From positions 1 to 64,000 of IMG/VR virus record IMGVR_UViG_3300048687_000087: a stretch of 64,000 nt of DNA; one strand, written 5' to 3'. Of this stretch, positions 1,228 through 51,363 are shown piece after piece. Position numbers and translations under genes: made by a program. The stretch's first letter is position 1; each line of letters starts with the position of its first letter. The stretch is from a virus. Under the pieces are notes generated by a model. That model made no database searches, was not told where the DNA came from, and was given only the letters and a program-made list of their open reading frames with translations.

Positions 1228-1456
1228 CGTCACGACGGAGACGCTGACCCGCACGATCCGCCGCTGGATCATCCCGGCTGTTGAGCCCTGGGGTGCCGCC
1301 GCGGCCGAGATCGGTAAAGCGTGGGCGGTCGCCGAGCGCGCCTACCGGCAGCAGCACCAGATCCCCGACGAGCAGGGTCTCCACGACGATGCCCTCCGCT
1401 TCCACACCCGCGACGACCAGATCGTCATCGAATTCACCATCGAGGAGCCCAAGTGA
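1220..1456 (+). CDS. Phage hypothetical protein
   Basis: GTG start after GAGGAG, overlaps upstream stop. Confidence 0.65.
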   Translation: MADVTTETLTRTIRRWIIPAVEPWGAAAAEIGKAWAVAERAYRQQHQIPDEQGLHDDALRFHTRDDQIVIEFTIEEPK

Positions 1457-6030: not shown

Positions 6031-7419
6031 ATGCCGGGCATGAGCGACGAGCAACCCGCCACGAAACGCCCCTGGTGGTTCTGGCCCGCAGCCGCAGTCG
6101 GCACGGCCGCCTTCATCGTGCTCCTCATCTGGGCGCCCTGGTGGATCGAAGGCCACCACCTCAAAGACGAGAACGGCGAGCTGGTCTCCAGTGCCGGGAT
6201 CATTATCACCGGGTTCCGCACCATGCTCATCGCGATCGCAGCCGGTGCATTCACTGCCGCAGGGCTCTGGTATACACACCGCAGCCACCAGCACACAGTC
6301 GCCAAAGACCGCGAACAGGCCGACCTTACGCGCGAGGGCCAGGTCACTGGCCGGTACGTCGACGGCGTCAAGCTGCTGGCCTCCGAGAACCTGCACGAAC
6401 GCCTCGGCGGGATCTACGCGCTGGAACGCATCATGGCGGACAGCGAGCGAGACCACCTGACGATCGTCGAAGTCCTTTCAGCCTTTCTGCGAACGCGACT
6501 CAAGGACGACGAGTCGGAACGTGCACGCATCCACCAAGAGCGGGAATCGGCGGTCGGTGCGGCTAGCGGCAAGCCCAAGAGCAGCGAAGAGCCTGTTCTC
6601 ATCACGTTTGCTGAGGACGTGAGCGCAGCCTTGAGCGTGGTCAACCGTCGCCCGGCAGAGCGCCGCCACGCAGTTCCCCTAGCCATATTCGGTGCCGAGC
6701 TAGCCCGGCACGACCTTGAAGACGTCCCCTGGCAGTGGGCAGACCTCGCGAAGGCGAACCTCTCGCAAGCTCACCTGATCGGAGCCGATCTGGACCACGC
6801 GAACCTCACCGGGGCGACCCTCACTCAAGCCAAACTGGCAGGGGCGAGTCTCCGCGGAGCCTCTCTAGAGGAAGCGAACCTTTCTGCCGCCGTCCTCACC
6901 CGCGCGGACCTCACCGGCGCCGTCCTCGACGTGGCAACCTTGGCTAAGGCCAGCATGCAACGCAGCGACCTGCGTGAAGCACGCCTGGCCGGAGCCGACC
7001 TAACGCAAGCCGACCTAAGCAAGGCGCGCCTGTCCGGGGCGCGCCTGTACGGAGCCCGGCTGTACAGGGCGACCTTGACAGGCGCTCGACTTGATGAGGC
7101 GAATCTGGAACGGGCCGACCTGTCCGGTGCCAGGCTCGCGGAAGCTCGGCTCGACGGCGCGCGCCTGCATAACGCCACACTCACCGACGCCGACCTGCGA
7201 CGGACGAACCTCGACGGAGCACTCGGCCTCACCGTGTCATCGCTACTAAAAGCACACATCACTCGCAGCACCACACTCCCCGCCGAGATCGCGGCCGACC
7301 CTCAAATCCAGAACCGGATCGAAGAGTTCGAAGCCGAAGAGGAAGCCCTGCAGAAGGCAGCAGAGGAGGCTGCGCTGGGCCAATGGGAGGAACCCCCTAT
7401 GGCTGAGGGCGCCGAATAG
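6031..7419 (+). CDS. Membrane-anchored pentapeptide-repeat protein
   Basis: Two N-terminal TM helices, RLGGIYALERI motif, long A(D/N/R)Lxx repeat tract. Confidence 0.9.
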   Translation: MPGMSDEQPATKRPWWFWPAAAVGTAAFIVLLIWAPWWIEGHHLKDENGELVSSAGIIITGFRTMLIAIAAGAFTAAGLWYTHRSHQHTVAKDREQADLTREGQVTGRYVDGVKLLASENLHERLGGIYALERIMADSERDHLTIVEVLSAFLRTRLKDDESERARIHQERESAVGAASGKPKSSEEPVLITFAEDVSAALSVVNRRPAERRHAVPLAIFGAELARHDLEDVPWQWADLAKANLSQAHLIGADLDHANLTGATLTQAKLAGASLRGASLEEANLSAAVLTRADLTGAVLDVATLAKASMQRSDLREARLAGADLTQADLSKARLSGARLYGARLYRATLTGARLDEANLERADLSGARLAEARLDGARLHNATLTDADLRRTNLDGALGLTVSSLLKAHITRSTTLPAEIAADPQIQNRIEEFEAEEEALQKAAEEAALGQWEEPPMAEGAE

Positions 7420-8616: not shown

Positions 8617-9424
8617 CCGGATACCTCTTCTCTTCGCAGGGCGGATGGATCCTTGATCAGCGAGTTCGCAGCTCGCTGGTTGAACCGGCCGGACGGTTGC
8701 ACCCGTCCGGCCGTTCGCATGTCTGGGGCGGACCCCAACGACGTGCATCAGGACGTTAACCCAGGTGCTTCGAGGGTCGTTGACCTGCGGAAAAGTTCCG
8801 GAACCGAGACACTGAAAACGCGGGTATCAAGGTTGATTGTGTTGCGGAACAGCTTCTGTGAAATGCTCGAATTCATGCAGGGGTTGCGACCTGCGGCGAT
8901 GCGGCCCGAAAAAGTGGAACCCAATTCGGGTCGGCCCCCTTTTCGCCTATAGTTAATGCTCTGTGTGTCGATAGGGGTTTTGTGCCGGTTTGCTCCTTTC
9001 GCTGGTCGCGCAGGACATGGCCTGAACTGGTCGGTGCGATCCACCGCAACCAACCCTCCCTAAACGTCCAGGGCCAGCGGTAGGCCTCGCGCTGTCACAA
9101 ACGCTTTGTAGCAACGGACGCTACGCCCGACCCGCCAACCGGCCGCCACGAACCAGACGCCAGCCGACGGCTCTTGGATCTGCAGCAAGTCCGAGTTGCC
9201 CGAACGGATAGGATTCGTCGCGCGCCTCCATCGCACGGACAAACGAGACCGTGGTGGCGGACGGCTGGAAGACGCTCATTGTCGGGCGGCTACCTTCGGG
9301 CTGAAGTTGGGTCTTCGGGTTCGGGCATGCCGCTCCTTACGGTGCGTGTGGACGTGACCACTCTCACGGCATCGACCGTAAGGCGTATTCGCTTATGTAT
9401 CAAGCCTTCGCGTTACAGGCATGC

Positions 9425-9452
9425 AAAAGCCCCCAGCGTCCTTGCTGGGGGC
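9425..9452 (-). terminator. Intrinsic terminator of the GntR operon
   Basis: GCCCCCAGC-6nt-GCTGGGGGC followed by TTTT on the minus strand. Confidence 0.7.
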
Positions 9453-9469
9453 GGCAGTTACTTCGCAGG

Positions 9470-10237
9470 TCAGTCGAGTAGATCGACGTGATAGCCCATC
9501 TTGAACCGATGGGACGCCTTGGCCAGGATCGTGACCTCGATCGGCCTGTCGTCGTCGCTGTATACGATCCGGAAGACCTCTAGGACTGGGACGTCGCGCG
9601 GGATTTCGAGCGCTTCGTACTCCTCGGTCGTGGCGGGGCGAGCGGCGACAGCATCGTCCTGTGAGCGGGTCGGGTAACCCATCTCGTTGAGCAGGGCCGG
9701 CGAGCCGCCGGGGATTCGCCGCCGGTCCGCGAGGCGTGTGCCGCGGGCGAGCTCGATCGGGTAGTACGAGTGCACCAACTCCGCTGGCTGCTCATCGAGG
9801 TAGCCGATCCGGGATCGCAGCATCGCCGTGTCGTCGGCTTCGAGGCGGAGGGCCTTGGCAACTTCGACCGGAGGCTTGACCTCGGCGACATCGAGGATGC
9901 GGTACTTGCTGGTCTGCTGCCGATTGGCGGCTTCGGTCAGCCAGCGGTACGGGTCGCCTGGTTCGGCGGGGGCGATGTAGTGCGCCGGCGAGATCGTCTG
10001 CGCTCGCTCGCTGCGCACGAACACGCCAACGCCTGTGCGGCCTTCAAGGAACTTCTCGTCTTTGAGGATCTGCAGCGCCCGCTGGATCGTCACGTTGGAG
10101 GTCTCGTATTCGCCCCGCAGTGCCTCGTTAGTAGGCACCTTGCGGCCTGGTTCCCAGTCGCCCGACATGATCTTTCTGCGGATGTCTGCGGCGATGCGTT
10201 CCGCCTTGGGGCGCTCGTCCTTGTGTGGCTCAGGCAT
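9470..10237 (-). CDS. GntR/HutC-family repressor (KorSA-like), wHTH + UTRA
   Basis: IAADIRRKIMSGDWEPGRKVP...TIQRAL..L...G wHTH followed by UTRA domain. Confidence 0.9.
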   Translation of the reverse strand: MPEPHKDERPKAERIAADIRRKIMSGDWEPGRKVPTNEALRGEYETSNVTIQRALQILKDEKFLEGRTGVGVFVRSERAQTISPAHYIAPAEPGDPYRWLTEAANRQQTSKYRILDVAEVKPPVEVAKALRLEADDTAMLRSRIGYLDEQPAELVHSYYPIELARGTRLADRRRIPGGSPALLNEMGYPTRSQDDAVAARPATTEEYEALEIPRDVPVLEVFRIVYSDDDRPIEVTILAKASHRFKMGYHVDLLD

Positions 10238-10766
10238 TCGGGACCTCGATCTCGTAGTGGAGGCGGCGAGGCGCCTTCATGACCATGACCTGCACTTCGT
10301 ATGGACTCCCGTCTTCGGTGGATGTCGTGCGCAGCAGGTGGAGCACGCTCGCGCCTTCCGGCAGGTTGAGGGCGGATCGCTCGAACTCGTCGGCGGAGCG
10401 AAACTCCAGGTCCTCCGCGACATGGCGGGGTCGGTAGCCGAGCTCGGCAAGGAGAGTGGGCGCGCCACCCTTGATCTTCCGGTGCTCGGCCAGGCCGGTG
10501 CCGGTGGCGAGTTCGGCCGGGTAGTAGGAGTCGGCGAGCTCGATGACCGCCTTGTCCAGCAGGATCGACCGCCGGCGGACGACCGCCGTACCGCCCTCCG
10601 GCAGGTCGAGCGCTTCGCTCACCGCTGCAGGTGGGGTCACTTCTGTGACCTCGGTGAGGTGCTGTCCACCGCGCTGCTTCGCCTCTTCAGTCCAGGCGTC
10701 GGCCTGGCCCGTTTTGCGGGCGGTGACGTAGGCGAGCGAGTCGGATGTGCGCTGCTTATCGGCCAT
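10230..10766 (-). CDS. Stand-alone UTRA-domain protein
   Basis: Paralogous to the UTRA half of the adjacent GntR (SYYPAELATGT.LA); no HTH. Confidence 0.8.
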   Translation of the reverse strand: MADKQRTSDSLAYVTARKTGQADAWTEEAKQRGGQHLTEVTEVTPPAAVSEALDLPEGGTAVVRRRSILLDKAVIELADSYYPAELATGTGLAEHRKIKGGAPTLLAELGYRPRHVAEDLEFRSADEFERSALNLPEGASVLHLLRTTSTEDGSPYEVQVMVMKAPRRLHYEIEVPNA

Positions 10767-10875
10767 CTCTGGCGCTTCCCCTCCTGCTGGCGATGTTCCC
10801 TCTGACCTCCCCAACCTTAAGCCCTTGATGATTACGCCTGCCTGTCGCTCCTTGGCCAAATTCACGTCGCAAGGC

Positions 10876-10905
10876 TTGCTACCTTATTAGGTAAGCATGT
10901 ATACC
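10876..10905 (+). promoter_or_regulatory. Putative promoter with palindromic operator for the xis/tra operon
   Basis: TTGCTA-18nt-TATACC containing ACCT-TATT-AGGT inverted repeat, in a divergent intergenic region. Confidence 0.45.
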
Positions 10906-10940
10906 TGCTCACAGATGCGAAGCACTCAACAGGAGGCGCA

Positions 10941-11135
10941 ATGCTGCGAGTCCGAGACGTCGCAACACACTTCCGAGTGCACCCCGCGACTGTCTATCGC
11001 TGGATCCACCAGGGCTTTCTCCCTGCGTTCAGGAACGGGCAGCCGTACAAACCCGGAGATGGGGCCACCGGGGCCCTCCGGATTCCCGACTCCGTCTTGA
11101 AGTCGACGGACACTCCTATTGAGGAGGTGGCCTGA
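10941..11135 (+). CDS. Excisionase-like HTH_17 protein
   Basis: LRVRDVATHFRVHPATVYRWIHQG.LPA...LRIP. Confidence 0.85.
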   Translation: MLRVRDVATHFRVHPATVYRWIHQGFLPAFRNGQPYKPGDGATGALRIPDSVLKSTDTPIEEVA

Positions 11136-11137
11136 CG

Positions 11138-11455
11138 ATGGCCACAGCTACTCGCCCCACCGTCCCGCTTCCGTCTGCTCTCCCGGGTGTGCGTCTGACG
11201 GCGCCGCTTCCGAAGTCTGCTGTCGATGTCCTGGCTCGTCTGGAGTCGGCTCTGCCGTCCGCGATTGACGTGGCTCGCGCCGTGACGCGTTTCGAGATCG
11301 CGACCGCCCGGATCGTCGAGCTGTCTGCGGTGGATGCCCAGCATCTGTCGGGCGCGGACTTCATCGCTTTGGGCGATGCGCAGGATGCGGTGAAGGCGTC
11401 CCGCACGTTCCTGGCGCGGGTCGGCCTGCTGTGCCTGGTCGAGGAGGTCGCGTGA
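11138..11455 (+). CDS. Hypothetical protein
   Basis: GGAGG RBS, coupled operon. Confidence 0.65.
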   Translation: MATATRPTVPLPSALPGVRLTAPLPKSAVDVLARLESALPSAIDVARAVTRFEIATARIVELSAVDAQHLSGADFIALGDAQDAVKASRTFLARVGLLCLVEEVA

Positions 11456-11697
11456 TGGCTTCTCTGGCCGTGCATGAGGCGAAGGCACGTCTCGCCGAGT
11501 ACCAGTCGCGTTGTCTGGCGGAGGAGTTCGCGCAGGCTGCCTGGTCCTCGCAGTTCCCGGACGGCGCGACCCCTGATGAGCTGGCGCGCCTGGAGCGGGA
11601 CCGCGAAGGCTGGTCCCTGCTGGCGCGGGCGCACCACCGGTCGGCCCGCCACCTGAACCGTGTCCGTCGGATCAAGCGTTTGCTGGGGTGGTCGTGA
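11455..11697 (+). CDS. Hypothetical protein
   Basis: TGATG coupling. Confidence 0.6.
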   Translation: MASLAVHEAKARLAEYQSRCLAEEFAQAAWSSQFPDGATPDELARLERDREGWSLLARAHHRSARHLNRVRRIKRLLGWS

Positions 11698-11888
11698 TGG
11701 CGACCGCTGTCGAGTCCCCGGCGCGCACGGTGTTGCAGCGTTTCCCTGCGGGTGGTCCGCGTGGTTCGTGGCCGGCTGAGGAGTACGCCCAGCGTCGCCG
11801 CGACGAGGGCCAGCCGTGCGACGTGATCATGTCGCTGGCCGATGACGCGTTTCTCGTGATCGTCCGCAGTGCGCGGGCGGTGGCGTGA
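11697..11888 (+). CDS. Small AICE-associated hypothetical protein
   Basis: RFPAGGPRGSWPAEEYA motif; TGATG coupling. Confidence 0.65.
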   Translation: MATAVESPARTVLQRFPAGGPRGSWPAEEYAQRRRDEGQPCDVIMSLADDAFLVIVRSARAVA

Positions 11889-11974
11889 TGGCCGCTGAAC
11901 CGCAGCCGGCTGATGACGAGGACGACGAGATGCGGTCGTTCGCCTGGGAGTTCGGCGACCTGGACGAGGAATAG
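11888..11974 (+). CDS. 28-aa highly acidic peptide
   Basis: TGATG coupling; MAAEPQPADDEDDEMRSFAWEFGDLDEE. Confidence 0.45.
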   Translation: MAAEPQPADDEDDEMRSFAWEFGDLDEE

Positions 11975-11985
11975 CCCCCTGAACT

Positions 11986-12094
11986 GCCGCGGGCGGGGAT
12001 TCCCATCCGTTCCCCCACGGCCCCGCCCGCGGCTTCCTCCTCTGGTCTCTGGCTATGTCGGTGGCCGCATCCGACTCCCCCCAGTGGGTGCGGC
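11986..12094 (+). ncRNA. Double hairpin with C-rich loops (6C-RNA-like candidate)
   Basis: GCCGCGGGCGGGG/CCCCGCCCGCGGC stem with TCCCCC loop; GCCGCATCC/GGGTGCGGC stem with CCCCCC loop. Confidence 0.4.
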
Positions 12095-12147
12095 TTCCCG
12101 CTAGTCCAGCACCACCTCGCTTGTCCTCACTGTCTTAGGAGTTCGCT

Positions 12148-12327
12148 ATGGCCGCCCTGTTTGGTTCTTCCTCCGGTGCTCGTCGTGAGACCCGTTCCGA
12201 GCGGCGTGACCGTGACGCTCGTCTGACTTCGGCTCGGCGTGCCGCGTCGACGGCTCGCCTGATGCACGAGCTTGAGCAGGAGGGCGAGGAGCGCAGCAGG
12301 CGCTCTTGGCGCAACTACTCAAACTGA
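12148..12327 (+). CDS. 59-aa basic helical peptide (MAALF...; not in ORF track)
   Basis: AGGAG RBS, open frame to TGA. Confidence 0.6.
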   Translation: MAALFGSSSGARRETRSERRDRDARLTSARRAASTARLMHELEQEGEERSRRSWRNYSN

Positions 12328-12383
12328 CCGTCCGCCAGTCCAGCTCCACCTCACTGTTTCTGCGCCCTGAGAGGACCTCGCTC

Positions 12384-12800
12384 ATGACTTCGCCCGAGAC
12401 CGTCCGCTACACCGCTGACGTGGTCGTCACCACGACTGACGGGTACGTCCTGCTGATCGAGCGTGGCTGGGATCCGTTCAAGGGGCAGTGGGCGTTGCCC
12501 GGCGGGCATGTCGACTCCGGCGAGACGAGTCGCGACGCCGCGGTTCGGGAGCTTGCCGAAGAGGTCAGCGTGTACGCGGCGCCGGGGGAGCTGGAGCAGG
12601 TCGGCGTTTTCGACCGGCCCGACCGTGACCCGCGTGGCAGGTACGTCACCGTCGCCTACCACCTGACTGTCATCGCTGGCACGCCCGCCGAGGCGGGCGA
12701 TGACGCGGTCACTGCCCAGTGGTGGCCCCTGAGTCACCTGCCGCCGCTTGCGTTCGACCACGCCGACATTGTCGGCGCTGTGTCGGCATCGGCTTCGTGA
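12384..12800 (+). CDS. Nudix hydrolase (pSAM2 Pif-like)
   Basis: Nudix box GGHVDSGETSRDAAVRELAEE; RDPRG and LAFDH motifs. Confidence 0.92.
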   Translation: MTSPETVRYTADVVVTTTDGYVLLIERGWDPFKGQWALPGGHVDSGETSRDAAVRELAEEVSVYAAPGELEQVGVFDRPDRDPRGRYVTVAYHLTVIAGTPAEAGDDAVTAQWWPLSHLPPLAFDHADIVGAVSASAS

Positions 12801-12867
12801 GAACGCGCAACACCCCCGCCAGTCCACGTCTGTCAACTTCTGCGACCTGAAAGGCCCCGTGATTTTC

Positions 12868-13107
12868 ATGTCTCCGTTCTTGTTCGATGCCGATCTGGGT
12901 GTCACCGATATGGGCCGTAAGGCGCGTGCGCTGGTGTCGGTTGCAGATGTCGGCGACTCCTACGCCGCCCAGCTGATCTCCGAGTTCCTCGCGGCTCGCG
13001 CTAACGGGCAGCTGGGTCTCATGCAGTTGATCCGCGAGCACGCGGCTGCTGTGGACCCCGACCTGGTCGCGGAGCTCGACGGCTTCGACTACCCGGCGGC
13101 TGCGTGA
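12868..13107 (+). CDS. Hypothetical protein
   Basis: Coupled to downstream gene; start uncertain. Confidence 0.55.
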   Translation: MSPFLFDADLGVTDMGRKARALVSVADVGDSYAAQLISEFLAARANGQLGLMQLIREHAAAVDPDLVAELDGFDYPAAA

Positions 13108-13508
13108 TGGCTGCTGTGGAGATCGTGTCGTTCGGGTTCCTACATGGCCCGCTCGCCGGCGAGGACGGTGAGCCGCTGCCGGTGGACGTGACCGTCGATC
13201 TGCGCCGTCACTTCCGTGATCCGCATGTGTCGCCGGAGCTGCGCTACATGACGGCGGATGACGAGCCGGTCCGCGTAGCGGTCATGGGCACGCCGGGGGT
13301 CGCGGTGCTGGTGGCGGCGACGGCCGCGGCGGTGGAGGCGTTCACCTTGGGTCCGTCCGCCGGGCCGGTTCTGGTCGCGGACGGGTGTGCGGGCGGACGG
13401 CATCGCGCCCCCGTGTTCGCCCGCGAGCTCGGGCGGCTGCTCACCGCCGCCGGTCACGACGTGACGGTCCGGCACCGGGACATGCACCGGCCGGTCGTTC
13501 AGCGCTGA
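13107..13508 (+). CDS. RapZ/YvcJ C-terminal-domain-like protein
   Basis: SFGFLHG, DLRRHFRDPH, GCAGGRHRA, VRHRD motifs. Confidence 0.8.
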   Translation: MAAVEIVSFGFLHGPLAGEDGEPLPVDVTVDLRRHFRDPHVSPELRYMTADDEPVRVAVMGTPGVAVLVAATAAAVEAFTLGPSAGPVLVADGCAGGRHRAPVFARELGRLLTAAGHDVTVRHRDMHRPVVQR

Positions 13509-13511
13509 ACA

Positions 13512-13561
13512 GCCTCGATGGTCGCAAGGCCGGGTTCGACTCCCGGCCGGGGCACGCACCA
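13512..13561 (+). repeat. Type-A tRNA-like element A1
   Basis: GCCTCGA-11nt-CCGGG TTCGACT CCCGG-CCGGGGC-ACGCACCA. Confidence 0.75.
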
Positions 13562-13588
13562 ATCCACCAACTCACAGAGGAGCAGGAC

Positions 13589-13795
13589 ATGGGACGCAAC
13601 AACACGACCTCCGCCAACCACGCTGGCGACATCGGCGACGGCGACAACGTGATCTCCGGCGTCAAGGGGTCGGTGGCACTGAACGGTGACGTCCACAACA
13701 ACACAAGCGAGAGCACCGGCCAGCGCACCGTCTCCGGCAAGGACAGGACCGTGGTCAAGGGCGACAACACCGCCACCATCTCCCGCAGCTTCTGA
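13589..13795 (+). CDS. 68-aa G/N/D/S/T-rich peptide, amyloid-motif-like
   Basis: GAGGAG RBS; DNVISGVKGSVALNGDVHN...TVVKGDN. Confidence 0.7.
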   Translation: MGRNNTTSANHAGDIGDGDNVISGVKGSVALNGDVHNNTSESTGQRTVSGKDRTVVKGDNTATISRSF

Positions 13796-13838
13796 CCCGC
13801 ACCACCCCAACCCATTCATTGACACGAAGGAGCACGTC

Positions 13839-14045
13839 ATGCCCGGAGCCCGTCATTCTCTCGGCGCCACGACCAGCAGCCTGAAGGCCGAGATTGAGGC
13901 CGACGTCGCTGCGAACCGCGGCGCCCAGCGCGACATGGAGGCCGCCGGCAACCAGGCGATGGCCGCCCGCATGGGTGCCGCCGCCGACGAGTCGCTCGAC
14001 GAGCTGAACGACTTCAAGGCAGGCAAGTGGAGCCCCCGCCCCTAA
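13839..14045 (+). CDS. 68-aa helical microprotein
   Basis: AAGGAG RBS. Confidence 0.7.
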   Translation: MPGARHSLGATTSSLKAEIEADVAANRGAQRDMEAAGNQAMAARMGAAADESLDELNDFKAGKWSPRP

Positions 14046-14053
14046 CCCGTTCG

Positions 14054-14085
14054 CCTGCAGTTCGAGCAGGCCGAGGCACGCACCA
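14054..14085 (+). repeat. Type-A tRNA-like element A2 (5'-truncated)
   Basis: CCTGC AGTTCGA GCAGG-CCGAGGC-ACGCACCA. Confidence 0.65.
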
Positions 14086-14113
14086 ACACCACTACCAATC
14101 TGAGGAGTTCGAA

Positions 14114-14293
14114 ATGGCGTATGAGAACCGGTCCAGTGAGCAGCTCAGGTCCAGCATTCAGAGCGCGGCCGAGGAGGGCCAGTTCCGGTCGTCCATCGGC
14201 GACAAGGTCGCGGAGGACGAGGCGCACCGCACGATCGACCGCCGCCTGGACGAGCTGGAGCGGCGTGGCGATCTGACCTCGGACGGCCGCTGA
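14114..14293 (+). CDS. 59-aa helical microprotein
   Basis: GAGGAG RBS. Confidence 0.7.
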   Translation: MAYENRSSEQLRSSIQSAAEEGQFRSSIGDKVAEDEAHRTIDRRLDELERRGDLTSDGR

Positions 14294-14299
14294 CAGCCA

Positions 14300-14356
14300 G
14301 CCCCGGCATCGCTGCCGTGAGGGCGCCGCATCGGATGCGGTCCGGGGCGCGCACCA
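14300..14356 (+). repeat. Type-A tRNA-like element A3
   Basis: GCCCCGG-CATCGCTGCCGTGAGGGC-GCCGC ATCGGAT GCGGT-CCGGGGC-GCGCACCA. Confidence 0.75.
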
Positions 14357-14385
14357 TCTCCAGCCCCTTCTTTGAGAGGAAGCAC

Positions 14386-14601
14386 ATGGCCACACATCGC
14401 GCGAAGCACAGCGGGGTTTCCAACACGGGCTCGATGCAGGGCGTCACGTTCGAGCCCGGCGACAACGACGACGACACCGGCCGTGGTTCGTCGTCCGGCG
14501 GCGGGATCACGAACTCCGGCGTGATGCACAACGTCGTGGTCACGTCCGGCGACAACAACGTCGCCACCAACACCGAGACGACCGTCTACCGCCGCCGCTG
14601 A
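14386..14601 (+). CDS. 71-aa peptide with two 18-aa pseudo-repeats, amyloid-motif-like
   Basis: GAGAGGA RBS; GVSNTGSMQGVTFEPGDN / GITNSGVMHNVVVTSGDN. Confidence 0.7.
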   Translation: MATHRAKHSGVSNTGSMQGVTFEPGDNDDDTGRGSSSGGGITNSGVMHNVVVTSGDNNVATNTETTVYRRR

Positions 14602-14652
14602 GCCTGCCCGCAACCCGATCCGCCCGCTACAACTCCTGACTCCCGCACCACC

Positions 14653-14708
14653 GCCCCGGTTTCCAGCCGTGAGGGCGCCGGGTCGACTCCGGCCCGGGGC
14701 ACGCACCA
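14653..14708 (+). repeat. Type-A tRNA-like element A4
   Basis: GCCCCGG-TTTCCAGCCGTGAGGGC-GCCGG GTCGACT CCGGC-CCGGGGC-ACGCACCA. Confidence 0.75.
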
Positions 14709-14738
14709 TCCCAACCCACCCGAACGGAAGGAAGATCC

Positions 14739-14912
14739 ATGTCCCGGAAGACTGACAAGGAGTGCGCTCAGCAGGCAGTCGCTGCGGCGATGGCCGGCGA
14801 GACCCCAGCTGTCACGAAGCGACTGATCGAGTCCTCGATGACGCGCGACGAGATGGCACGCGGATCCGCGTACATCGCCTCTGGCCAGAAGGTCACCGGC
14901 AAGGGCCGCTGA
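14739..14912 (+). CDS. 57-aa microprotein (not in ORF track)
   Basis: GGAAGGA RBS; MSRKTDKECAQQAVAAAMAG... Confidence 0.65.
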   Translation: MSRKTDKECAQQAVAAAMAGETPAVTKRLIESSMTRDEMARGSAYIASGQKVTGKGR

Positions 14913-14930
14913 ACCTACCCGCAGCCCGAT

Positions 14931-14990
14931 CCGCCCGTCTCGAACGGGCGGTGAGGAGACCGGACAGTCCGGCACCCAACCCGAGAGGAA
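14931..14990 (+). repeat. Type-B double-hairpin element B1
   Basis: CCGCCCGT ctcga ACGGGCGG, TGAGGAGA, CCGGA cag TCCGG, CCGAGAGGA. Confidence 0.65.
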
Positions 14991-14995
14991 CCCTG

Positions 14996-15184
14996 ATGGC
15001 CCTGTTCAAGAAGTCCCCTGAGGTCGCCGCCCTGCGTGAGGCCGATGCTGCTCTGCACGCGAACCAGCGGCGTGAGGAAGCGGCCGGCATCGACTACGAG
15101 ACGCCGGAGTACAAGCGCCTCAACGCCGCGGCGAACGAGGCCGCCGACAAGGTGTCCCGCTGGCGCGGCGGCAACAAGCGCTGA
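14996..15184 (+). CDS. 62-aa microprotein (MALFKK...)
   Basis: GAGAGGA RBS. Confidence 0.7.
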   Translation: MALFKKSPEVAALREADAALHANQRREEAAGIDYETPEYKRLNAAANEAADKVSRWRGGNKR

Positions 15185-15195
15185 CCGGCTGCCCG

Positions 15196-15271
15196 CCGGG
15201 CCCGTCTCGCACGGGCCCGGTCGAGGGGAGCCGGGACACCCCCGGACCACTACATGCCAATCCCGAGAGGA
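15196..15271 (+). repeat. Type-B double-hairpin element B2
   Basis: CCGGGCCCGT ctcgc ACGGGCCCGG, TCGAGGGGAG, CCGGG acacc CCCGG, CCGAGAGGA. Confidence 0.65.
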
Positions 15272-15277
15272 GTCTTG

Positions 15278-15484
15278 ATGGCCCTGTTTCGTCGAAGCCA
15301 GCCCGAAGAGCCCGAGGTGCTCGCCACGGCCGCCGAAGTGGACGCTGCGGCACGCCAGTTGCAGCAGGGAGGTAGCGATCAGCTCGCCCAGCAGCTCATC
15401 GACCGGGCCGGCCCGGACAACGAGCAGCGAGTCGGGATGGCGATCCTGTCGCGCGCCGCCGACTACGAACCGTCCGGGGAGTGA
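15278..15484 (+). CDS. 68-aa microprotein (MALFRR...)
   Basis: GAGAGGAG RBS. Confidence 0.7.
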   Translation: MALFRRSQPEEPEVLATAAEVDAAARQLQQGGSDQLAQQLIDRAGPDNEQRVGMAILSRAADYEPSGE

Positions 15485-15675
15485 GCGCCATGCCGAAACG
15501 CAAAGAGCCGCCGGTGGGCGCGTGCCCGCAGTGCTTTAACCACGTCGAGAACAAGGATCACGGGTCGACCTTCCTGGGCCTGTTCGGCGAACCGGAGTGC
15601 GCGGCGTGCACGGACCACTACAACAACGGCTGCCCCACGGTCGTGCCGCCGAAGCCGGGATTCGGCTGGTGGTGA
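15481..15675 (+). CDS. pRL2-8-like Cys/His small protein
   Basis: CPQC..H...CAACTDH..NGCP....WW pattern. Confidence 0.65.
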   Translation: MSAMPKRKEPPVGACPQCFNHVENKDHGSTFLGLFGEPECAACTDHYNNGCPTVVPPKPGFGWW

Positions 15676-15686
15676 CCGGCTCCACC

Positions 15687-15756
15687 GCTCTCCCGCGGAC
15701 GTGTGCCGTGGGAGAGCTGTGAAGCCGGGACACCCCCGGCCCAACACCGAGAGGAA
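15687..15756 (+). repeat. Type-B double-hairpin element B3
   Basis: GCTCTCCCGCGG-7nt-CCGTGGGAGAGC, TGTGAA, GCCGGG acacc CCCGGC, CCGAGAGGA. Confidence 0.65.
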
Positions 15757-15761
15757 CTCGC

Positions 15762-15941
15762 ATGGGATCCGCAGACCGCTGGCCCGATCTCACCGGCAAG
15801 AGCTGGGCGACCAAGACCTCGACCGAGATGACTGACAGCGAAGTCAACGACGCCCGAGCCACGTTCGAGGCAGTCGGCCGCAACGACTACGAGAGCGAAT
15901 GGCTGAACCGTCACGGCCTGCCCGAGAACTACGGCGACTGA
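15762..15941 (+). CDS. 59-aa microprotein (not in ORF track)
   Basis: GAGAGGA RBS; MGSADRWPDLTGKSW... Confidence 0.65.
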   Translation: MGSADRWPDLTGKSWATKTSTEMTDSEVNDARATFEAVGRNDYESEWLNRHGLPENYGD

Positions 15942-15985
15942 CCGACTACCTAACCCATCCGTCCCGCACCAGACAGGAACCCCAC

Positions 15986-16093
15986 ATGCCCACGAATCCC
16001 CAGACCGGCAGCGAGATCGAGGTCGAGGACGACGGCGACTACACCGTCACCTTCGAGATGACGCTCCCGCCCCAGTCCGACGACGAGAAGTAG
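15986..16093 (+). CDS. 35-aa acidic peptide
   Basis: AGGA RBS; EIEVEDDGDYTVTFEM. Confidence 0.5.
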   Translation: MPTNPQTGSEIEVEDDGDYTVTFEMTLPPQSDDEK

Positions 16094-16117
16094 CCCAACT
16101 CCTGAGAGGAGGCCGCC

Positions 16118-16330
16118 ATGCGGCCCCTATTGCTCCTGCTCGTGGCGGCTGTCCTCGCGCTATTCGGTAAATGCCCGGAAGCTGTCACGGCCCTCGGTGC
16201 TACGGCCGGCCTCATCTTCGGAGGCCTCCTTCACGTACTCGCCGAGCCCGCCCTCCTCGCCGCCATCGGCGCCGGCCTGGCCATCACCGTCATCCGCGCC
16301 GGACGGGCGCACGCACGAGAGGCCCATTGA
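16118..16330 (+). CDS. Small membrane protein (Spd-like)
   Basis: GGAGG RBS; hydrophobic helices. Confidence 0.65.
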   Translation: MRPLLLLLVAAVLALFGKCPEAVTALGATAGLIFGGLLHVLAEPALLAAIGAGLAITVIRAGRAHAREAH

Positions 16331-16404
16331 TGCGCGCGCTCTACCTGCTCGCCATGTTCTTCCCGCTGATCCTGCTCGCCTTCCTCCTCGGACGAGGTTT
16401 CTAG
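16330..16404 (+). CDS. 24-aa hydrophobic peptide
   Basis: TGATG coupling; MRALYLLAMFFPLILLAFLLGRGF. Confidence 0.45.
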   Translation: MRALYLLAMFFPLILLAFLLGRGF

Positions 16405-17228
16405 TGAACGCTCCACCGTCCCGCATCGGTTGGGATCCGCTCGTTGCGGTGTCCCTGATTGCCGGTGTCGGGTTCACGGCGATCGCCGAGTACCAGCTCG
16501 CCAGAACAATCGGCGCGCCCGTCCCGGTGGCGGTACTCCTGCCCGTCGCCCTCGACGTGTACGTCGTCGCTGCGATCCGTCGCTCCCGCGGCCGGGACAT
16601 CGCCCTCGCGCTCCTGTTGATGGGCGTCGCGCAGGTGTCAGCGCACATGCTCGAAGCCGGCGTCGTGGAGATCTCAGTACCGCTCGTCGCCGCCGTGTCG
16701 GTACTAGTACCGCTCGTCATCTGGCGAGTGCACGCACTGGCGGTACTGCCCGACAAGCAGCACGTGAAATCCGGTACCAAAGCGGGGGTCGCCGAGCATC
16801 CGGTACCGGATGCCACCGTCGAGCGAGTACCGGCACCGGAGACCGTCGCAGTACCGGATGCCGACCCGGTCCCGGTACCGGCTGCGAGCCGCCCGGAACT
16901 CGAAGCCGTACCGGAGTCAGTACCGGACCCGGTACCGGTACGGCCGCGTCGCCGCACCAGCAAGAGGACCGGGCGCAGTTCCGCCCCCAAGGCCCGCCCC
17001 AAGAAGACCGGTACTGCCTCGTTCGACGAGCACGTCCGTACCGCCATCGACTGGCTCGCCGACGACCCGACCCTGTCCGGTACCGCCATCGGCAAGAAGC
17101 TCGGTACCGGCGACTCCTACGGCCGGCGCGTCCGCCGCGAAGCCCTCGCCCAAGCCGGTACCGAACCGGCTCCTGGCCCCGAGCACCGGGACCACGACAG
17201 CAACGTCCCGACCCTCACCGGAAGCTGA
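16404..17228 (+). CDS. SpdA/SpdB-like multi-TM protein with C-terminal HTH
   Basis: About 4 TM helices (LPVALDVY), Pro-rich linker, LSGTAIGKKLGTGDSYGRRV HTH; immediately upstream of traB. Confidence 0.7.
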   Translation: MNAPPSRIGWDPLVAVSLIAGVGFTAIAEYQLARTIGAPVPVAVLLPVALDVYVVAAIRRSRGRDIALALLLMGVAQVSAHMLEAGVVEISVPLVAAVSVLVPLVIWRVHALAVLPDKQHVKSGTKAGVAEHPVPDATVERVPAPETVAVPDADPVPVPAASRPELEAVPESVPDPVPVRPRRRTSKRTGRSSAPKARPKKTGTASFDEHVRTAIDWLADDPTLSGTAIGKKLGTGDSYGRRVRREALAQAGTEPAPGPEHRDHDSNVPTLTGS

Positions 17229-17231
17229 CCC

Positions 17232-19367
17232 ATGACCACGACCGAGCCGATAACCGAGGTCGAAGAACGGCCTCTCAAGCTGGTCAAGCCGCCCGCCACC
17301 GAGACGCCCACGAAGACCCGTGCCGAGCGGCAGCGACTACGCCGCCTCAAGGCTGTGCTCGCCGACGAGCGCACCCGCGACGTGTACCGGCTCGCCGTCC
17401 GCCACGGCGCTTACGTTGCGGGCGGCGCCCGGATCATCACCCGCCGCGGATGGGACGACCGCAGTACCGCCCGCTACCAGCGGATGATCCGCACCGCTGA
17501 AGCCGCAGGGAACCGTGAACTCGCCGCCGACTGGGAAGAGCGCGCCCACCGGTTCCGGCAAGCACGCCACCAGCGCCGCATGGACCTCCTCACTTCCATG
17601 CGCAACGCGCCCAAAGCCGTCGGAGCCGGTGCCCTCACCGGCACGGGACTGCTCGCCGTCACCGGGATCGCCATCGCCGTCGCCAACAAGAACATCGCCG
17701 ACATACTGCTGCCCTTCGAGTTCGTCATCGGCATCGTGAGCTGGGCATACGTCATCGCCAGCGTGGTGTGGGCGACCGTGAAGCTCGCAGGCCCCAGCCT
17801 GGCTGTGCTCGCCCTGTGGAACCTCGGACGCCAGCGGCAGGCGGCCCCGGCGTGGGCGCTGCCGGAGAAACTCCGCACTGACGGAGGCCCGATCACCCCG
17901 TCGATCGTGGTGAAAGCCTTCCGTGACCTGCGGATTAGCGACCTGAAGAAGGCCATCCTGGACATGGAGGATGGCGGCGCATCCATGCTGTCGCCGATCG
18001 TCATCGCAGGCTGCGGCGTCGAAGTCGACGTCACCTTGCCGTCCAGCGTCTCCACCGACGAGATCGAGGCAAAGCGGCGCAAGCTCGCCGAGAACCTCAA
18101 CCGGCACGAGCACGAGCTGTACATTTCTGTCGCTCCGCAGCCGCGGACGGTGAAGCTGTGGATCGCCGACTCCGGTGCTCTCGACGAGCCGATCGGGCCG
18201 TCGCCGCTGGTCACAGACCCTGGCATGACCGCCGACTACAAGACCGGTCGTGCACCGTGGGGTGTCGACCTGCGCGGCGACGCCGTGTTGATGAGCCTGT
18301 TCCAGAAGATGGTGCTGGTCACGGGCCTGTCCAACCAGGGGAAGACGGCATCGTTGCGGGCCCTGGCTCTGTGGCTGGCTTTCGACCCGTCCGTCGAGTT
18401 CCGTATCGGTGACCTCAAGGGCATCGGCGACTGGCGAATGTTCGTCGGCCTCGCCACCGTCGTGATCGAGGGGCCGACGGACGAGCACGTCATGGACGTC
18501 ACGCACATGGTCGAGGACGGGTTCGAGGAGATGAACCGGAGGCTGCAGGCCCCCGAGGGCACTGTGTTCAAACCGCTGGTCATCATCGTTGACGAGGCGC
18601 AGGTCGCCTACGGGTCGGGTGCCCGGGAGACCTATGTGACGGACAACGGGACCGTGAAGTTCGGGGCACCTTACGGCGGGTCCAAGAGCACGAGCAGGTA
18701 CTTCCGGGCCGTCAAGGGCATCCACGACCAGGGCCGCGCCGTCAACGTGCTGATCTGGGAAGGCACCCAGGACCCGACGAACGAAAACCTGCCCAAGCGG
18801 TCCCGCGAGGGCAACCACATCCGGGCAGCGCTGGTCCTCGGCACCAAGTCCCAGGCCGAGATGGCGCTCGGCGAGGCGCCCGTAGAGAAGGGCGCCGCAC
18901 CGCACAAGCTGCGGCAGGGCTTCGACAAGGGACAACTCGTAGCCGCAGGTGAGGGCGTCCCGCTGGCCCCCGGCCAGGTGTCGCTGAACGTGCGCACGCA
19001 CTACATCAGCAACGACGACGCGAAGGAAGTCGCGGACCGGGCCAAGGCGCTGCGCAGGAAGGTCACCACGCTGCACAAGCTGGAGCCCGTCGAGGAACTG
19101 GACCCGCTGGCCGACATCGCAATCGTCATTGGCAGTACGGCGCGCATGCGGACGCAGGAAGTCCTTCAACTGCTGGCGGAACGCAACCCGGCTGGCTACC
19201 GAGAGTGGACGTTCCAGGACCTGAAGGAGGCCCTGGGAGTCGTCGACGCAGCCCCGCACAAGAGCGACGGGCAGATGGTCGTGGACCAACAGAAGGTCCA
19301 ACGGGCCCTCGCCGAACGCGACTCCAAGGACCAGGGAGGCGAGAAGAAGACAGGGAGTTCTCCCTGA
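17232..19367 (+). CDS. traB: TraB/TraSA-like FtsK/SpoIIIE conjugative DNA translocase
   Basis: N-terminal TMs, Walker A GLSNQGKT, DLKG, Walker B IIVDEAQ, C-terminal wHTH-like domain. Confidence 0.88.
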   Translation: MTTTEPITEVEERPLKLVKPPATETPTKTRAERQRLRRLKAVLADERTRDVYRLAVRHGAYVAGGARIITRRGWDDRSTARYQRMIRTAEAAGNRELAADWEERAHRFRQARHQRRMDLLTSMRNAPKAVGAGALTGTGLLAVTGIAIAVANKNIADILLPFEFVIGIVSWAYVIASVVWATVKLAGPSLAVLALWNLGRQRQAAPAWALPEKLRTDGGPITPSIVVKAFRDLRISDLKKAILDMEDGGASMLSPIVIAGCGVEVDVTLPSSVSTDEIEAKRRKLAENLNRHEHELYISVAPQPRTVKLWIADSGALDEPIGPSPLVTDPGMTADYKTGRAPWGVDLRGDAVLMSLFQKMVLVTGLSNQGKTASLRALALWLAFDPSVEFRIGDLKGIGDWRMFVGLATVVIEGPTDEHVMDVTHMVEDGFEEMNRRLQAPEGTVFKPLVIIVDEAQVAYGSGARETYVTDNGTVKFGAPYGGSKSTSRYFRAVKGIHDQGRAVNVLIWEGTQDPTNENLPKRSREGNHIRAALVLGTKSQAEMALGEAPVEKGAAPHKLRQGFDKGQLVAAGEGVPLAPGQVSLNVRTHYISNDDAKEVADRAKALRRKVTTLHKLEPVEELDPLADIAIVIGSTARMRTQEVLQLLAERNPAGYREWTFQDLKEALGVVDAAPHKSDGQMVVDQQKVQRALAERDSKDQGGEKKTGSSP

Positions 19368-19450
19368 GGGCCTCCCTGAGGCGCCTGACCCCATCTGACC
19401 AGCACGAATCGCTCTTTCAGGGAGGCAGGGAGGCGCTCGCAGCCTCCCTG
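19332..19450. repeat. clt-like cluster of CAGGGAG(G) repeats
   Basis: Copies at 19332, 19351, 19418, 19426 (+) and 19359, 19371, 19443 (-), at the 3' end of traB. Confidence 0.65.
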
Positions 19451-19530
19451 AAAGCCCCCGGAATCAGGGGTTTTCGAAGGAACGAGCCGGCTCCTCGACA
19501 ACCCAGGACCGCACGGAAACGAGGAAGCCG

Positions 19531-20271
19531 ATGCCATGCGTAGCCCACGACGAAGACCGACCCTGCGGCCGAGAGACCACCATGACCAGGCCCGTAGCGC
19601 TGTGTCACATCCATCGTGTTCAGGTCGCACTCGCTGTCATGCCCGAGCTGCTGAGCGAACACCTGGCAAGCGCCGCAACGCCACTCGCAATACCGAGCCT
19701 CTTACAGGGGCCCCATGACCCCATCGTCTACTTCCTCGGCCACCGCGACCGCATCAAGATCGGGTTCACGACCAATCTCAAGAAGCGCGTCAACGCCCTC
19801 GCGCTGCGCCCCGGCAGCATCCTGCTGGCCCTGGACGGCAGCGCCGATCTCGAGCAGGCCCTGCACGCCCGCTTCGCTCCTGCGCAGGTCGGTGACACCG
19901 AGTGGTTCGACAGCACCCCAGAGATCCGGCACTACATCGACAACCGCAGCACGTGGGCGCATGGACTGGCGCGGCGAGGGCCGCTGGACAACCAGAGAAG
20001 GCCAACGCTCGAACGGGCCTCGACCAATGCAGAGCGTGCAGTCCTGCTTGCCGATCTGGCAGAAGTTCTAGGAAGCGAGCCTCGTATGCGCACGAGGGAA
20101 GCACTGCAGCGTCTCGTCGAGAACGCGCCGGCCACGTATCGCAGCTGGACGTTCCGGGACCTCACCCAGGTACTTCGGGCCGCCAACTCGCCGCCTCGCA
20201 CCTACCAGGGCTTTCCGGTCGTCGACCGGCAGTCCGTCCACACGGCTCTAGCCGCACAGCAGTCTCAGTAG
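19531..20271 (+). CDS. GIY-YIG/T5orf172-like protein fused to a TraB-type C-terminal domain
   Basis: IVYFLGHRDRIKIGFTTNLKKR...E..LH.RF......EWF; C-terminus aligns with the TraB C-terminus. Confidence 0.78.
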   Translation: MPCVAHDEDRPCGRETTMTRPVALCHIHRVQVALAVMPELLSEHLASAATPLAIPSLLQGPHDPIVYFLGHRDRIKIGFTTNLKKRVNALALRPGSILLALDGSADLEQALHARFAPAQVGDTEWFDSTPEIRHYIDNRSTWAHGLARRGPLDNQRRPTLERASTNAERAVLLADLAEVLGSEPRMRTREALQRLVENAPATYRSWTFRDLTQVLRAANSPPRTYQGFPVVDRQSVHTALAAQQSQ

Positions 20272-20301
20272 CTACTTCACCCACCCAACCGAAGGAGTTC
20301 C

Positions 20302-20469
20302 GTGGCCAAGCCCAAGCCGTTGTACACGACCGGAGAGATCGCGCAGAACACGTTCATCGTCGGCACCGCCATGTTGCGCGGCGGGCGCCTCACCGACCGA
20401 CAGAAGCGCCGTCTGGAACGAATCCGCGACAACGCCATGGACCGCGGCGGCGTCACCGACAAGCACTGA
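20302..20469 (+). CDS. 55-aa protein (DUF6257-like)
   Basis: AAGGAG RBS; TTGEIA...KRRLERIRDNA. Confidence 0.55.
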   Translation: MAKPKPLYTTGEIAQNTFIVGTAMLRGGRLTDRQKRRLERIRDNAMDRGGVTDKH

Positions 20470-20492
20470 CCAACCCAACCCGAGGAGAACCC

Positions 20493-20705
20493 ATGTCCCA
20501 CATGACCACCGCCCCGCCCGCCGTACCGGAGACCAGCCTGTCGATCGACACGTTCGAGACCGTCGGCACCCTCGACAACCTGCACCCCGCGAAGTGGACG
20601 TCGGTCGTCTACGACCACGACGGCCAAATAGTCGCCAGCTCCGGCCTGAAGGACAGCGACCAGGAGTCCATCGACGCCGTCAACGCCCTGCTCGCCACGG
20701 TCTGA
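20493..20705 (+). CDS. Hypothetical protein
   Basis: GAGGAG RBS. Confidence 0.6.
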   Translation: MSHMTTAPPAVPETSLSIDTFETVGTLDNLHPAKWTSVVYDHDGQIVASSGLKDSDQESIDAVNALLATV

Positions 20706-51354: not shown

Positions 51355-51363
51355 CGAGGCTGC

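Follow-up and report, generated by a model that had tools for sequence, protein, structure and literature searches.

What separates the ten small genes that stand in tandem in front of the conjugation genes of a Streptomyces-type mobile element, and what do the folded spacers between them do? The locus lies in the IMG/VR virus record IMGVR_UViG_3300048687_000087, a sequence of 77,412 bp with direct terminal repeats, of which positions 1 to 64,000 are called the window. Between 13589 and 16093 the window carries ten plus-strand open reading frames (ORFs) of 35–71 amino acids. Seven of these are directly preceded by a folded spacer of one of two kinds: type A (four copies, one degenerate, 5' of ORF1, 3, 4 and 5) or type B (three copies, 5' of ORF6, 7 and 9). 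We find that A and B are RNA structures selected on the sense transcript and tied to the stop codon of one gene and the start codon of the next. Our favoured explanation, to which we give a probability of about 0.55, is that they are cis-acting intercistronic RNA modules and that A is a tRNA mimic that would be processed by RNase P and RNase Z.

The ten ORFs have the composition of genes. The G+C content is 0.81–0.97 at third codon positions (GC3) and ~0.5 at second positions (GC2), matching the flanking NUDIX, RapZ-C and TraB genes, and a Shine–Dalgarno (SD)-like motif stands 5–13 nt 5' of the start in each. Because GC3 and GC2 are like those of Streptomyces genes, we take the ORFs to be real. 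Their products are hydrophilic, with weak relatedness confined to the pairs ORF1/ORF4, ORF2/ORF6 and ORF6/ORF7. An earlier reading of this DNA from its letters alone (the sequence-only reading) had described mostly unrelated small ORFs with their own ribosome-binding sites, seven of them preceded by one of two conserved elements. The codon composition and SD-like motifs, the restriction of relatedness to three weak pairs, and the repeats themselves, four A and three B copies of which covariance models match all but A2, confirm these observations. No protein from the small ORFs scored above the curated cut-off in Pfam or above threshold in PHROG, where two marginal matches were to proteins of unknown function (E-values 7e-4 and 5e-3), and a protein atlas search with the small proteins returned nothing usable. 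ORF6 has Streptomyces relatives in at least 99 protein clusters, every one annotated 'hypothetical'. The suggestion of the sequence-only reading that the array delivers small effector or anti-defence proteins found no support in these searches.

The A family was collected with the pattern GCCCCGG-N28-58-CCGGGGCNCGCACC, which matched 59 IMG/VR stretches. About 45 of these are true copies, each on one strand between a stop codon and an SD motif with its start codon. A covariance model (R1) was built from an alignment of 32 copies and found further copies outside the pattern; the structure statistics given below come from a second alignment, of 46 R1 matches. BLAST located A in eight Streptomyces plasmids, pFP11 and NZ_CP108706.1 among them; every copy lies in an unannotated spacer of a GntR...traA-traB operon. 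By R1, A is present in 21 of 151 Streptomyces species genomes (~14%) and in none of the 149 other Actinomycetes sampled, and there was no copy among the sequenced phages of INPHARED. Where genome contigs were scanned with the pattern, the matches listed were mostly chance hairpins of other phyla, and only those in L111, L141 and L148 were true by the model (L and G numbers denote related loci and genomes). Both A and B occur in 1–4 copies per genome, and only in transfer operons of mobile elements. Within the whole 77-kb record, covariance models made from relatives match only in the array (three A, three B). No family in Rfam 15 matches A or B; the best scores over the array were those of chance-level miRNA models and of mascRNA, a tRNA-like family that weakly matches 13484-13553 (21.5 bits, below its gathering score of 42.5).

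A folds as a three-way junction. Its 7-bp outer stem (GCCCCGG/CCGGGGC) encloses two hairpins: a small one, and a T-like one whose 5-bp stem closes a 7-nt loop, NUCGANU. The outer and T-like stems occupy alignment columns 1-7/45-51 and 28-32/40-44, and their 3' strands adjoin with no spacer nucleotide. In the T-like stem, compensatory changes were seen at all five pairs, with 99% pairing across the 46 copies. Among copies that the search pattern had not pre-selected, two pairs of the outer stem show compensatory changes (GCCUCGG/CCGAGGC and GCUCCGG/CCGGAGC), and the first hairpin shows GC to CG swaps at one pair. The same effect can be seen inside the array, where the T-stem of A3 (GCCGC/GCGGU) covaries relative to that of A4. 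None of 500 column shuffles reached the observed covariation score and one reached the count of pair types; when the register was slid, the signal collapsed. The loop is usually AUCGAAU or AUCGACU, with U-C-G-A conserved and a closing G-C pair in 44 of the 46 copies.

The B family was collected with the search word GCCGGGACANCCCCGGNCC, and a second model (R2) was then applied to genomes; this gave 14 true IMG/VR copies and copies in 14 of the 151 Streptomyces genomes (~9%). B starts 0–1 nt after a TGA stop codon with a box, C(C)GGCUGCCCGAUCC (also given as CGGCUGCCCGAUCC), followed by a variable GC-rich hairpin (hairpin 1), a purine box UGAGGGGAGCC and a small second hairpin whose loop reads ACAG (hairpin 2, GCCGGG-ACAGC-CCCGGC). 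Hairpin 1 is very variable in sequence and has compensatory changes at eight of its nine pairs. A possible outer helix, P1 (CGGCUGCCC / GGGGAGCCG), would be mutually exclusive with hairpin 2. In L061 one strand serves both families, as the 3' strand of hairpin 2 in B and as the 5' strand of an A element, and genome G075 has A and B on one contig at a distance of 630 nt; the overlap and the proximity indicate that the two families are modular and linked. A third kind of spacer was seen 5' of a gene family for a 119-amino-acid protein (L009:5210-5447, L010:5206-5446, L012:5264-5400, L013:5432-5618). It has a long perfect GC hairpin (e.g. GCCGCCGCGCCGGCGG...CCGCCGGCGCGGC), then UUCC and an A/C-rich leader, and may be a further member of the same toolkit.

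G.U pairs outnumber A.C pairs 30:3 in the helices of A and 15:2 in those of B, an excess which argues that the folds form on the sense strand. A begins a median of 10 nt after the upstream stop codon and ends 36–41 nt (median 38) before the next start codon, and all copies with inspected flanks are co-directional with the flanking ORFs. The leader between A and the start codon is 79% A+C and 14% G; G-poor, A/C-rich leaders of this kind, each with a strong ribosome-binding site, follow both A and B.

In Streptomyces plasmids, short GC-rich repeats close to the transfer genes are bound by TraB and SpdA. The elements might be DNA sites for proteins (clt repeats for TraB, docking sites for SpdA) or else functionless remnants of tRNA genes or attachment sites. 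B hairpin 2 includes CCGGGACA, which would suit a DNA site, and A shares its stem with a host tRNA (see below), which would suit a remnant. However, the putative docking word CGGGACA is not enriched (13 in the window against 16.6 expected), the strand bias and G.U excess suit double-stranded DNA sites poorly, and helices have been kept by compensatory change over dozens of diverged copies, which decay would not do. Moreover, the acceptor stem is present in A with its two strands, whereas an attachment site duplicates a tRNA 3' end. We regard either form of this explanation as highly improbable.

GC-rich hairpins directly 3' of stop codons could also be partial terminators or attenuators that impose polarity, with the front microgenes expressed at high levels and spd and traB at low levels. 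B3 and B2 fold far better than shuffled sequence (z-scores of -6.5 and -2.8), and the exclusion between helix P1 and hairpin 2 is an anti-terminator-like layout. TraB, moreover, is a kill function that needs tight control (PMC2440964). Yet the array hairpins differ from intrinsic (Rho-independent) terminators in that no U tract follows any element: the tails read ACGCACC after A and UGAGGGGAG / CCCAAC after B, and a terminator scan found no site on the plus strand of the array. A three-way junction with a T-like loop is not a terminator architecture, and termination would have no need of the tight 36–41 nt spacing to the next start. On balance we consider attenuation quite unlikely. A scan of 9000-20500 for sigma-70-like promoters found none.

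Some short motifs recur in these spacers. The heptamer CGCACCA has seven plus-strand copies within 2.4 kb (13555-15971), all in spacers, out of 24 in the 64-kb window, and it is also found in leaders that have no folded element (13798, 15965). The start motif CCGAGAGGA has no minus-strand copy in the window, and the motif alone is not significantly enriched there.

The geometry of A is that of a tRNA acceptor/T-arm minihelix: stems of 7 and 5 bp, stacked 3' strands and a 7-nt loop. The small hairpin stands where the D and anticodon arms would be, an unpaired A precedes G+1 of the stem, and a purine follows the stem in the place of the discriminator. In A1, whose loop has the canonical tRNA sequence, the most likely 5' strand is GCCUCGA at 13512, 3 nt after the RapZ-C stop codon. 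This corrects the sequence-only reading and assigns A1 to a sub-type common to other genomes (L223, L261, L263). L034 carries a 75-nt cloverleaf-like version of A. A search of five genomes with a pattern that joined a T-loop to CCGGGGCR returned more A1-type copies upstream of arrays together with a genuine tRNA(CAA) of 73–76 nt (L262:1501-1575 and L264:1501-1573, both on the minus strand), which scores 54–56 bits on the Rfam tRNA model. The acceptor stem GCCCCGG and the discriminator A of this tRNA are identical to those of A in the two genomes examined. Relatives of the tRNA at 74% identity or more, whose acceptor stems were not compared, occur in 36 of 61 Streptomyces genomes, with at most one match per genome. 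The likeness in build is best explained if A is a tRNA-derived or tRNA-mimicking three-way junction.

A was also considered as a true tRNA, and this was rejected: it has no anticodon arm, and it fails both the Rfam tRNA model and ARAGORN. As for tRNA(CAA) itself, bacterial tRNA-Leu is normally a long-arm class II species, and this one is of class I size although its anticodon is that of Leu. In L261 a two-hairpin stretch (1292-1362, minus strand) matches the plasmid antisense RNAs FinP and PtaRNA1 below threshold (31 bits, against gathering scores of 45 and 47); its position is antisense to an A1-type element and ~100 nt upstream of it.

RNase P requires no more than an acceptor/T-arm minihelix. 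Examples of its use on composite transcripts are E. coli secG-leuU, where RNase P separates an mRNA from a tRNA (PMC2241853), and MALAT1, whose 3' end is formed by RNase P at the tRNA-like mascRNA (PMC8457004). That A has no CCA is normal for the host, since 53 of the 65 tRNA genes of S. coelicolor do not encode one (PMC4681348). Given the tRNA build of A, an acceptor stem shared with the host and host tRNA genes that mostly have no CCA, processing by RNase P and tRNase Z is the most specific hypothesis. As in those two cases and in the tRNA punctuation of animal mitochondria, an acceptor/T-arm shape shares a transcript with functional RNAs, standing between them or at their end. A has the 7 + 5 bp minihelix, the unpaired N-1 and the purine discriminator of tRNA-type processing signals, positioned so that RNase P and RNase Z would free the neighbours, and, like mascRNA, it has a reduced body. 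Unlike tRNA punctuation, A does not decode, has no anticodon arm, occurs in up to four copies among the microgenes of a bacterial mobile-element operon and includes sub-types with no T-like arm; cleavage here is a prediction, and a search for RNA runs that contain this DNA listed none.

The proposed mechanism is as follows. The elements would divide a long operon transcript into units. Host RNase P would cut A on its 5' side and tRNase Z after the discriminator, and the products would be an upstream cistron whose 3' end is short, a ~49-nt tRNA-like RNA and a downstream cistron with a fixed leader of ~37 nt. B, and A where it is left uncut, would act as determinants of stability and translation. 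The outcome would be a separate and differently stable mRNA for each small gene, with controlled read-through into the potentially lethal traB. In this view ordinary recombination reassorts the modules and the small genes among related elements. The sequence-only reading had offered cutting into single mRNAs as one of two possibilities; it is still a live reading, and it gains weight from the tRNA-like build of A. In a bolder form, which we put forward tentatively and think possible rather than probable, Streptomyces conjugative elements and phage-plasmids would punctuate their operons with degenerate tRNA minihelices copied from the acceptor stem of the host tRNA(CAA), and RNase P with tRNase Z would yield monocistronic microgene mRNAs and ~49-nt tRNA-like RNAs. 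These RNAs might also be targets of the RapZ-C adaptor and the NUDIX hydrolase that the element encodes.

Several observations weigh against tRNA-type processing. The conserved tail of A, RCGCACC, is not accounted for by RNase P and RNase Z. ARAGORN predicted no tRNA in the window, L034, L223, L261 or L263. Rfam RF00005 gave no match at E<=10 in 12000-18000 of the window and none at E<=1 in L261, L263 or L034, whilst the real tRNAs of L262 and L264 score 54–56 bits in the very run that misses A. In sub-type 1 the first base of the loop is usually A and not U54; UUCGACU is found only in the A1 sub-type. Sub-types 2a and 2b retain the outer stem and the tail and have the T-like arm swapped for other hairpins, so the tRNA shape may not be the selected feature. 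Chromosomal copies of A are often followed by 100–170 nt of more hairpins and not directly by a start codon. By minimum free energy z-score the A copies do not fold better than shuffled sequence; the support for the structure of A comes from covariation. In B, helix P1 was invariant in the first set of copies and is broken without compensation in several unbiased ones.

The gene that heads the array suggests another reading. RapZ-C is a stand-alone protein whose homologue in E. coli is the C-terminal domain of RapZ, which binds RNA and serves as an RNase E adaptor; the two align (5O5S), and RapZ-C retains the GGxHR motif. A and B could then be RNA operators that RapZ-C binds, possibly with the NUDIX protein, to recruit RNase E or to alter the chemistry of the 5' end, thereby tuning the array and traB. 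A or B comes immediately after RapZ-C in L237, L270 and the window; RapZ-C also stands at the head of arrays in L013, L029, L054 and L058, and is fused to NUDIX in plasmids L006 and L007. Enzymes of the RppH-type NUDIX class trigger RNA decay, which would fit such a role. The link is a loose one, however, because most of the fetched A or B loci, which are short stretches, have no RapZ-C within them (e.g. plasmid NZ_CP108706.1) and the RapZ-C loci L008-L012 have no A. We think it unlikely that RapZ-C is what the elements are for.

The fusion was also seen as such: in several Streptomyces plasmids the RapZ C-terminal domain and the NUDIX hydrolase form one protein (L006:5603-6412, L007:5600-6484), annotated 'RNase adapter RapZ', and the window has them as separate genes. 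This hints at a shared RNA-directed function of Pif-like NUDIX proteins.

We return to the favoured RNA modules and to the reassortment that they are proposed to undergo. Across 13 RapZ-C loci, between zero and four small ORFs stand between RapZ-C and spd. Relatives of ORF2 occur at different array positions in L008, L011, L012, L029 and L058, and in L008 and L012 they lie upstream of RapZ-C. Relatives of ORF5 were found in L069 (after A) and L254 (no element), those of ORF7 in L022 (after A) and L058 (no element) and those of ORF10 in L022 and L073; ORF9 has an 84% identical relative beside A copies in the L239/L249 locus (genome G131). What precedes relatives of ORF6, 7, 5 and 2 depends on the locus and may be A, B or a plain leader, and since the same ORF families follow A, B or nothing, we conclude that modules reassort among related elements. 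The comparison that the sequence-only reading had proposed, over homologous loci, thus gave elements that are conserved and covary and a small-gene content and order that vary. Two further details of that reading held up. A2 is 5'-truncated: only its 3' two-thirds are kept, with no clean 5' strand, and it is not significant with R1. The copy at 14599 is a truncated B, which has lost the 3' arm of its hairpin and is followed by A4; the 33-nt repeat (D6) that it shares with B1 (14594-14626 and 14905-14937) is 91% identical.

The sequence-only reading had also raised shuffling at the repeats, which invites comparison with integrons: A and B would be DNA or single-strand sites at which a site-specific recombinase inserts, excises or reorders microgenes. 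As in integron arrays, tandem, co-oriented and promoterless small ORFs alternate with structured, imperfect repeats, content and order vary among relatives, and one ORF family can follow different elements. tRNA-like sequences are classic integrase targets, and composite or truncated elements exist (14599-14708, L061). A contig from the source sample, at depth 90 against ~500, gives a weak hint by joining 13561 to 14974, but one side of this joint has only 21 matching letters and it fits a related element equally well. Source-sample contigs break at several repeats, and the few joints that pass over parts of the array (13561-14974, 13106-14917, 13109-15950) were not used as evidence: the sides are 21–36 letters long, with 85% likeness, and also fit related elements. 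Against recombination sites stands the gene content of the record. The tyrosine integrase model PF00589 has no match in the complete 77 kb and matches all 14 control genomes; the sole recombinase family is represented by a 208-amino-acid serine recombinase (resolvase family, 92 bits) at 51352-51978, 35 kb away. With no tyrosine integrase in the record, integron-like cassettes are unlikely. Integrons further differ in having IntI and attC-type boxes, neither of which is seen here, and the RNA-type covariation with a G.U over A.C bias is typical of selection on one strand of RNA, while fixed distances to stop and start codons argue for a role in expression. We therefore put this explanation at very low odds, and shuffling or excision by a dedicated recombination system is not supported. 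What was seen in the array has thus been confirmed, and what was made of it is partly supported.

That reading had also known of no named system with this architecture. Our literature searches, in an incomplete collection, found no description of the folded spacers, and to this extent the statement stands; an analogue has been described, though. The closest in layout are the start-associated sequences (SAS) and extended start-associated sequences (ESAS) of Cluster K mycobacteriophages, which are oriented repeats placed just 5' of the start codon in some non-structural genes, from different families (PMC3203893). SAS is a conserved 13-nt asymmetric motif, GGGATAGGAGCCC, 3–8 nt before the start codon; about half of the SAS carry an upstream inverted repeat with a variable spacer, and ESAS are simple 17-bp inverted repeats, SAS and ESAS both being of unknown function (PMC3203893). 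Similarly, A or B precedes seven of our ten ORFs and unrelated ORF families elsewhere. In contrast to SAS, the sequence is unrelated, and the motif here is (C)CGAGAGGA; its four copies in the window compare with 1.3 expected, and 6 of 100 shuffles have at least as many. Whereas ESAS are simple, A combines a three-way junction with the geometry of a tRNA, and B starts from the stop codon upstream; the setting is a Streptomyces host and a TraB conjugation operon, not phage early genes.

The repetitive extragenic palindromic (REP) sequences and bacterial interspersed mosaic elements (BIME) of enterobacteria are transcribed intercistronic hairpins that set the relative stability of mRNA segments. 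A and B are likewise extragenic hairpins between the cistrons of one operon. REPs differ in having hundreds of chromosomal copies and an association with REP-associated tyrosine transposases (RAYT), and the structure of A and B is more complex and conserved.

The features of the array and its surroundings are collected in Table 1. ORF8 alone in the array follows its predecessor at a gap of 5 nt, where no folded spacer stands, and because the gap is so short we take it to be translationally coupled to ORF7. Its cysteine pattern suggests a small zinc-binding protein.

Table 1. Genes and folded elements of the array and its flanks (window coordinates; R1 and R2, covariance models for A and B; aa, amino acids)
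Feature	Position	Strand	Details
GntR/UTRA repressor gene, KorA/KorSA-type	9470..10237	-	Pfam GntR + UTRA; divergent from transfer operon
NUDIX hydrolase gene, Pif-like	12306..12800	+	Pfam NUDIX, 8e-22
Gene for 119-aa protein	12748-13107		Between NUDIX and RapZ-C genes
Stand-alone RapZ C-terminal domain gene (RNA-binding, RNase-adaptor)	13104..13508	+	Pfam PF22740, 5e-21; heads array
Element A1, tRNA-like minihelix sub-type	13512..13560	+	R1, 32 bits; canonical UUCGACU loop, then tail CGCACCA
ORF1, 68 aa, G/N/D-rich	13589..13795	+	GC3 0.91; SD GAGGAG
ORF2, 68 aa	13839..14045	+	GC3 0.87; leader with CGCACCA motif, no folded element
Element A2, degenerate	14054..14085	+	T-like hairpin CCUGC/GCAGG, 3' strand CCGAGGC, tail ACGCACCA; repeat family D3
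ORF3, 59 aa	14114..14293	+	GC3 0.90
Element A3, sub-type 1	14300..14356	+	R1 match 14300-14355, 68.7 bits
ORF4, 71 aa, G/N/D-rich	14386..14601	+	GC3 0.92; internal 68-nt repeat D2
Truncated B element	14599..14626	+	Stop codon and 5' box present, hairpin 1 with its 5' arm alone; 3' arm absent
Element A4, sub-type 1	14653..14708	+	R1 match 14653-14707, 78.4 bits
ORF5, 57 aa	14739..14912	+	GC3 0.81
Element B1	14910..14976	+	Stop codon, box, hairpin 1, purine box, hairpin 2; R2 match 14919-14976, 62.8 bits
ORF6, 62 aa, MxLFKK family	14996..15184	+	GC3 0.87
Element B2	15182..15248	+	R2 match 15186-15248, 64.9 bits; fold z-score -2.8
ORF7, 68 aa	15278..15484	+	GC3 0.81
ORF8, 61 aa, Cys-rich	15490..15675	+	CPQC...C..C...C
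Element B3	15673..15742	+	R2 match 15677-15742, 44.7 bits; fold z-score -6.5
ORF9, 59 aa	15762..15941	+	GC3 0.83
ORF10, 35 aa	15986..16093	+	GC3 0.97
Downstream operon part	16118..19367	+	70-aa membrane ORF, Spd-like gene (16404-17228), TraB (17232-19367)

The array is best read as the variable front part of a GntR-controlled transfer and spread operon, belonging to a TraB-type Streptomyces conjugative element on a phage-plasmid. An SPP1-type phage portal gene (26869-28416) lies on the same circular record as the TraB-like ATPase (711 amino acids), and the combination of a portal gene with a Streptomyces-type conjugation module points to a phage-plasmid with a transfer operon of the type found in plasmids and in AICEs, the integrative and conjugative elements of actinomycetes. 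The kil-kor/tra-spd operons of pIJ101, pSAM2 and pSVH1 likewise have a GntR repressor, a Pif-like NUDIX gene, small ORFs, Spd and TraB (PMC2440964), and A and B also occur in ordinary plasmids of this type, e.g. pFP11 and NZ_CP108706.1. The Spd proteins described for such operons (PMC2440964) are mostly small and hydrophobic, unlike the ten hydrophilic array proteins. In related loci the typical neighbours of an A or B array are GntR, a relative of the 119-amino-acid protein and sometimes RapZ-C or NUDIX, then Spd and TraB; the GntR/UTRA repressor gene adjoins the arrays in many of these loci, and TraB and Spd relatives also adjoin them. At the DNA level the window's NUDIX gene is ~70–77% identical to NUDIX genes from over 100 Streptomyces plasmids; when the whole locus was compared with plasmids at the DNA level, no alignment extended beyond this gene.

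Two further genes flank the operon. Upstream of the regulatory region is a 462-amino-acid pentapeptide-repeat protein (6031-7419; Pfam, 1e-42). Directly 3' of TraB is a T5orf172/MUG113 (GIY-YIG-like) domain protein (19531-20271), with a 53% identical relative in L073, in the same fetched locus as a TraB match.

The finding is more general than the locus at which it began. A and B are two well-supported structured RNA families outside Rfam 15 that are common in Streptomyces transfer operons, be they of plasmids, AICEs or phage-plasmids. They offer a handle on the expression of operons that combine a lethal DNA pump with many unexplained small genes and whose post-transcriptional control has hardly been studied. 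The arrays define a pool of conserved, exchangeable microproteins that are candidates for roles in conjugation, spread or the interplay with defence. If A is indeed cut by RNase P and RNase Z, it would be a clear case of tRNA-type punctuation in a bacterial protein-coding operon, a counterpart of mitochondrial tRNA punctuation, and it would provide a compact, portable part for multi-gene constructs in Streptomyces.

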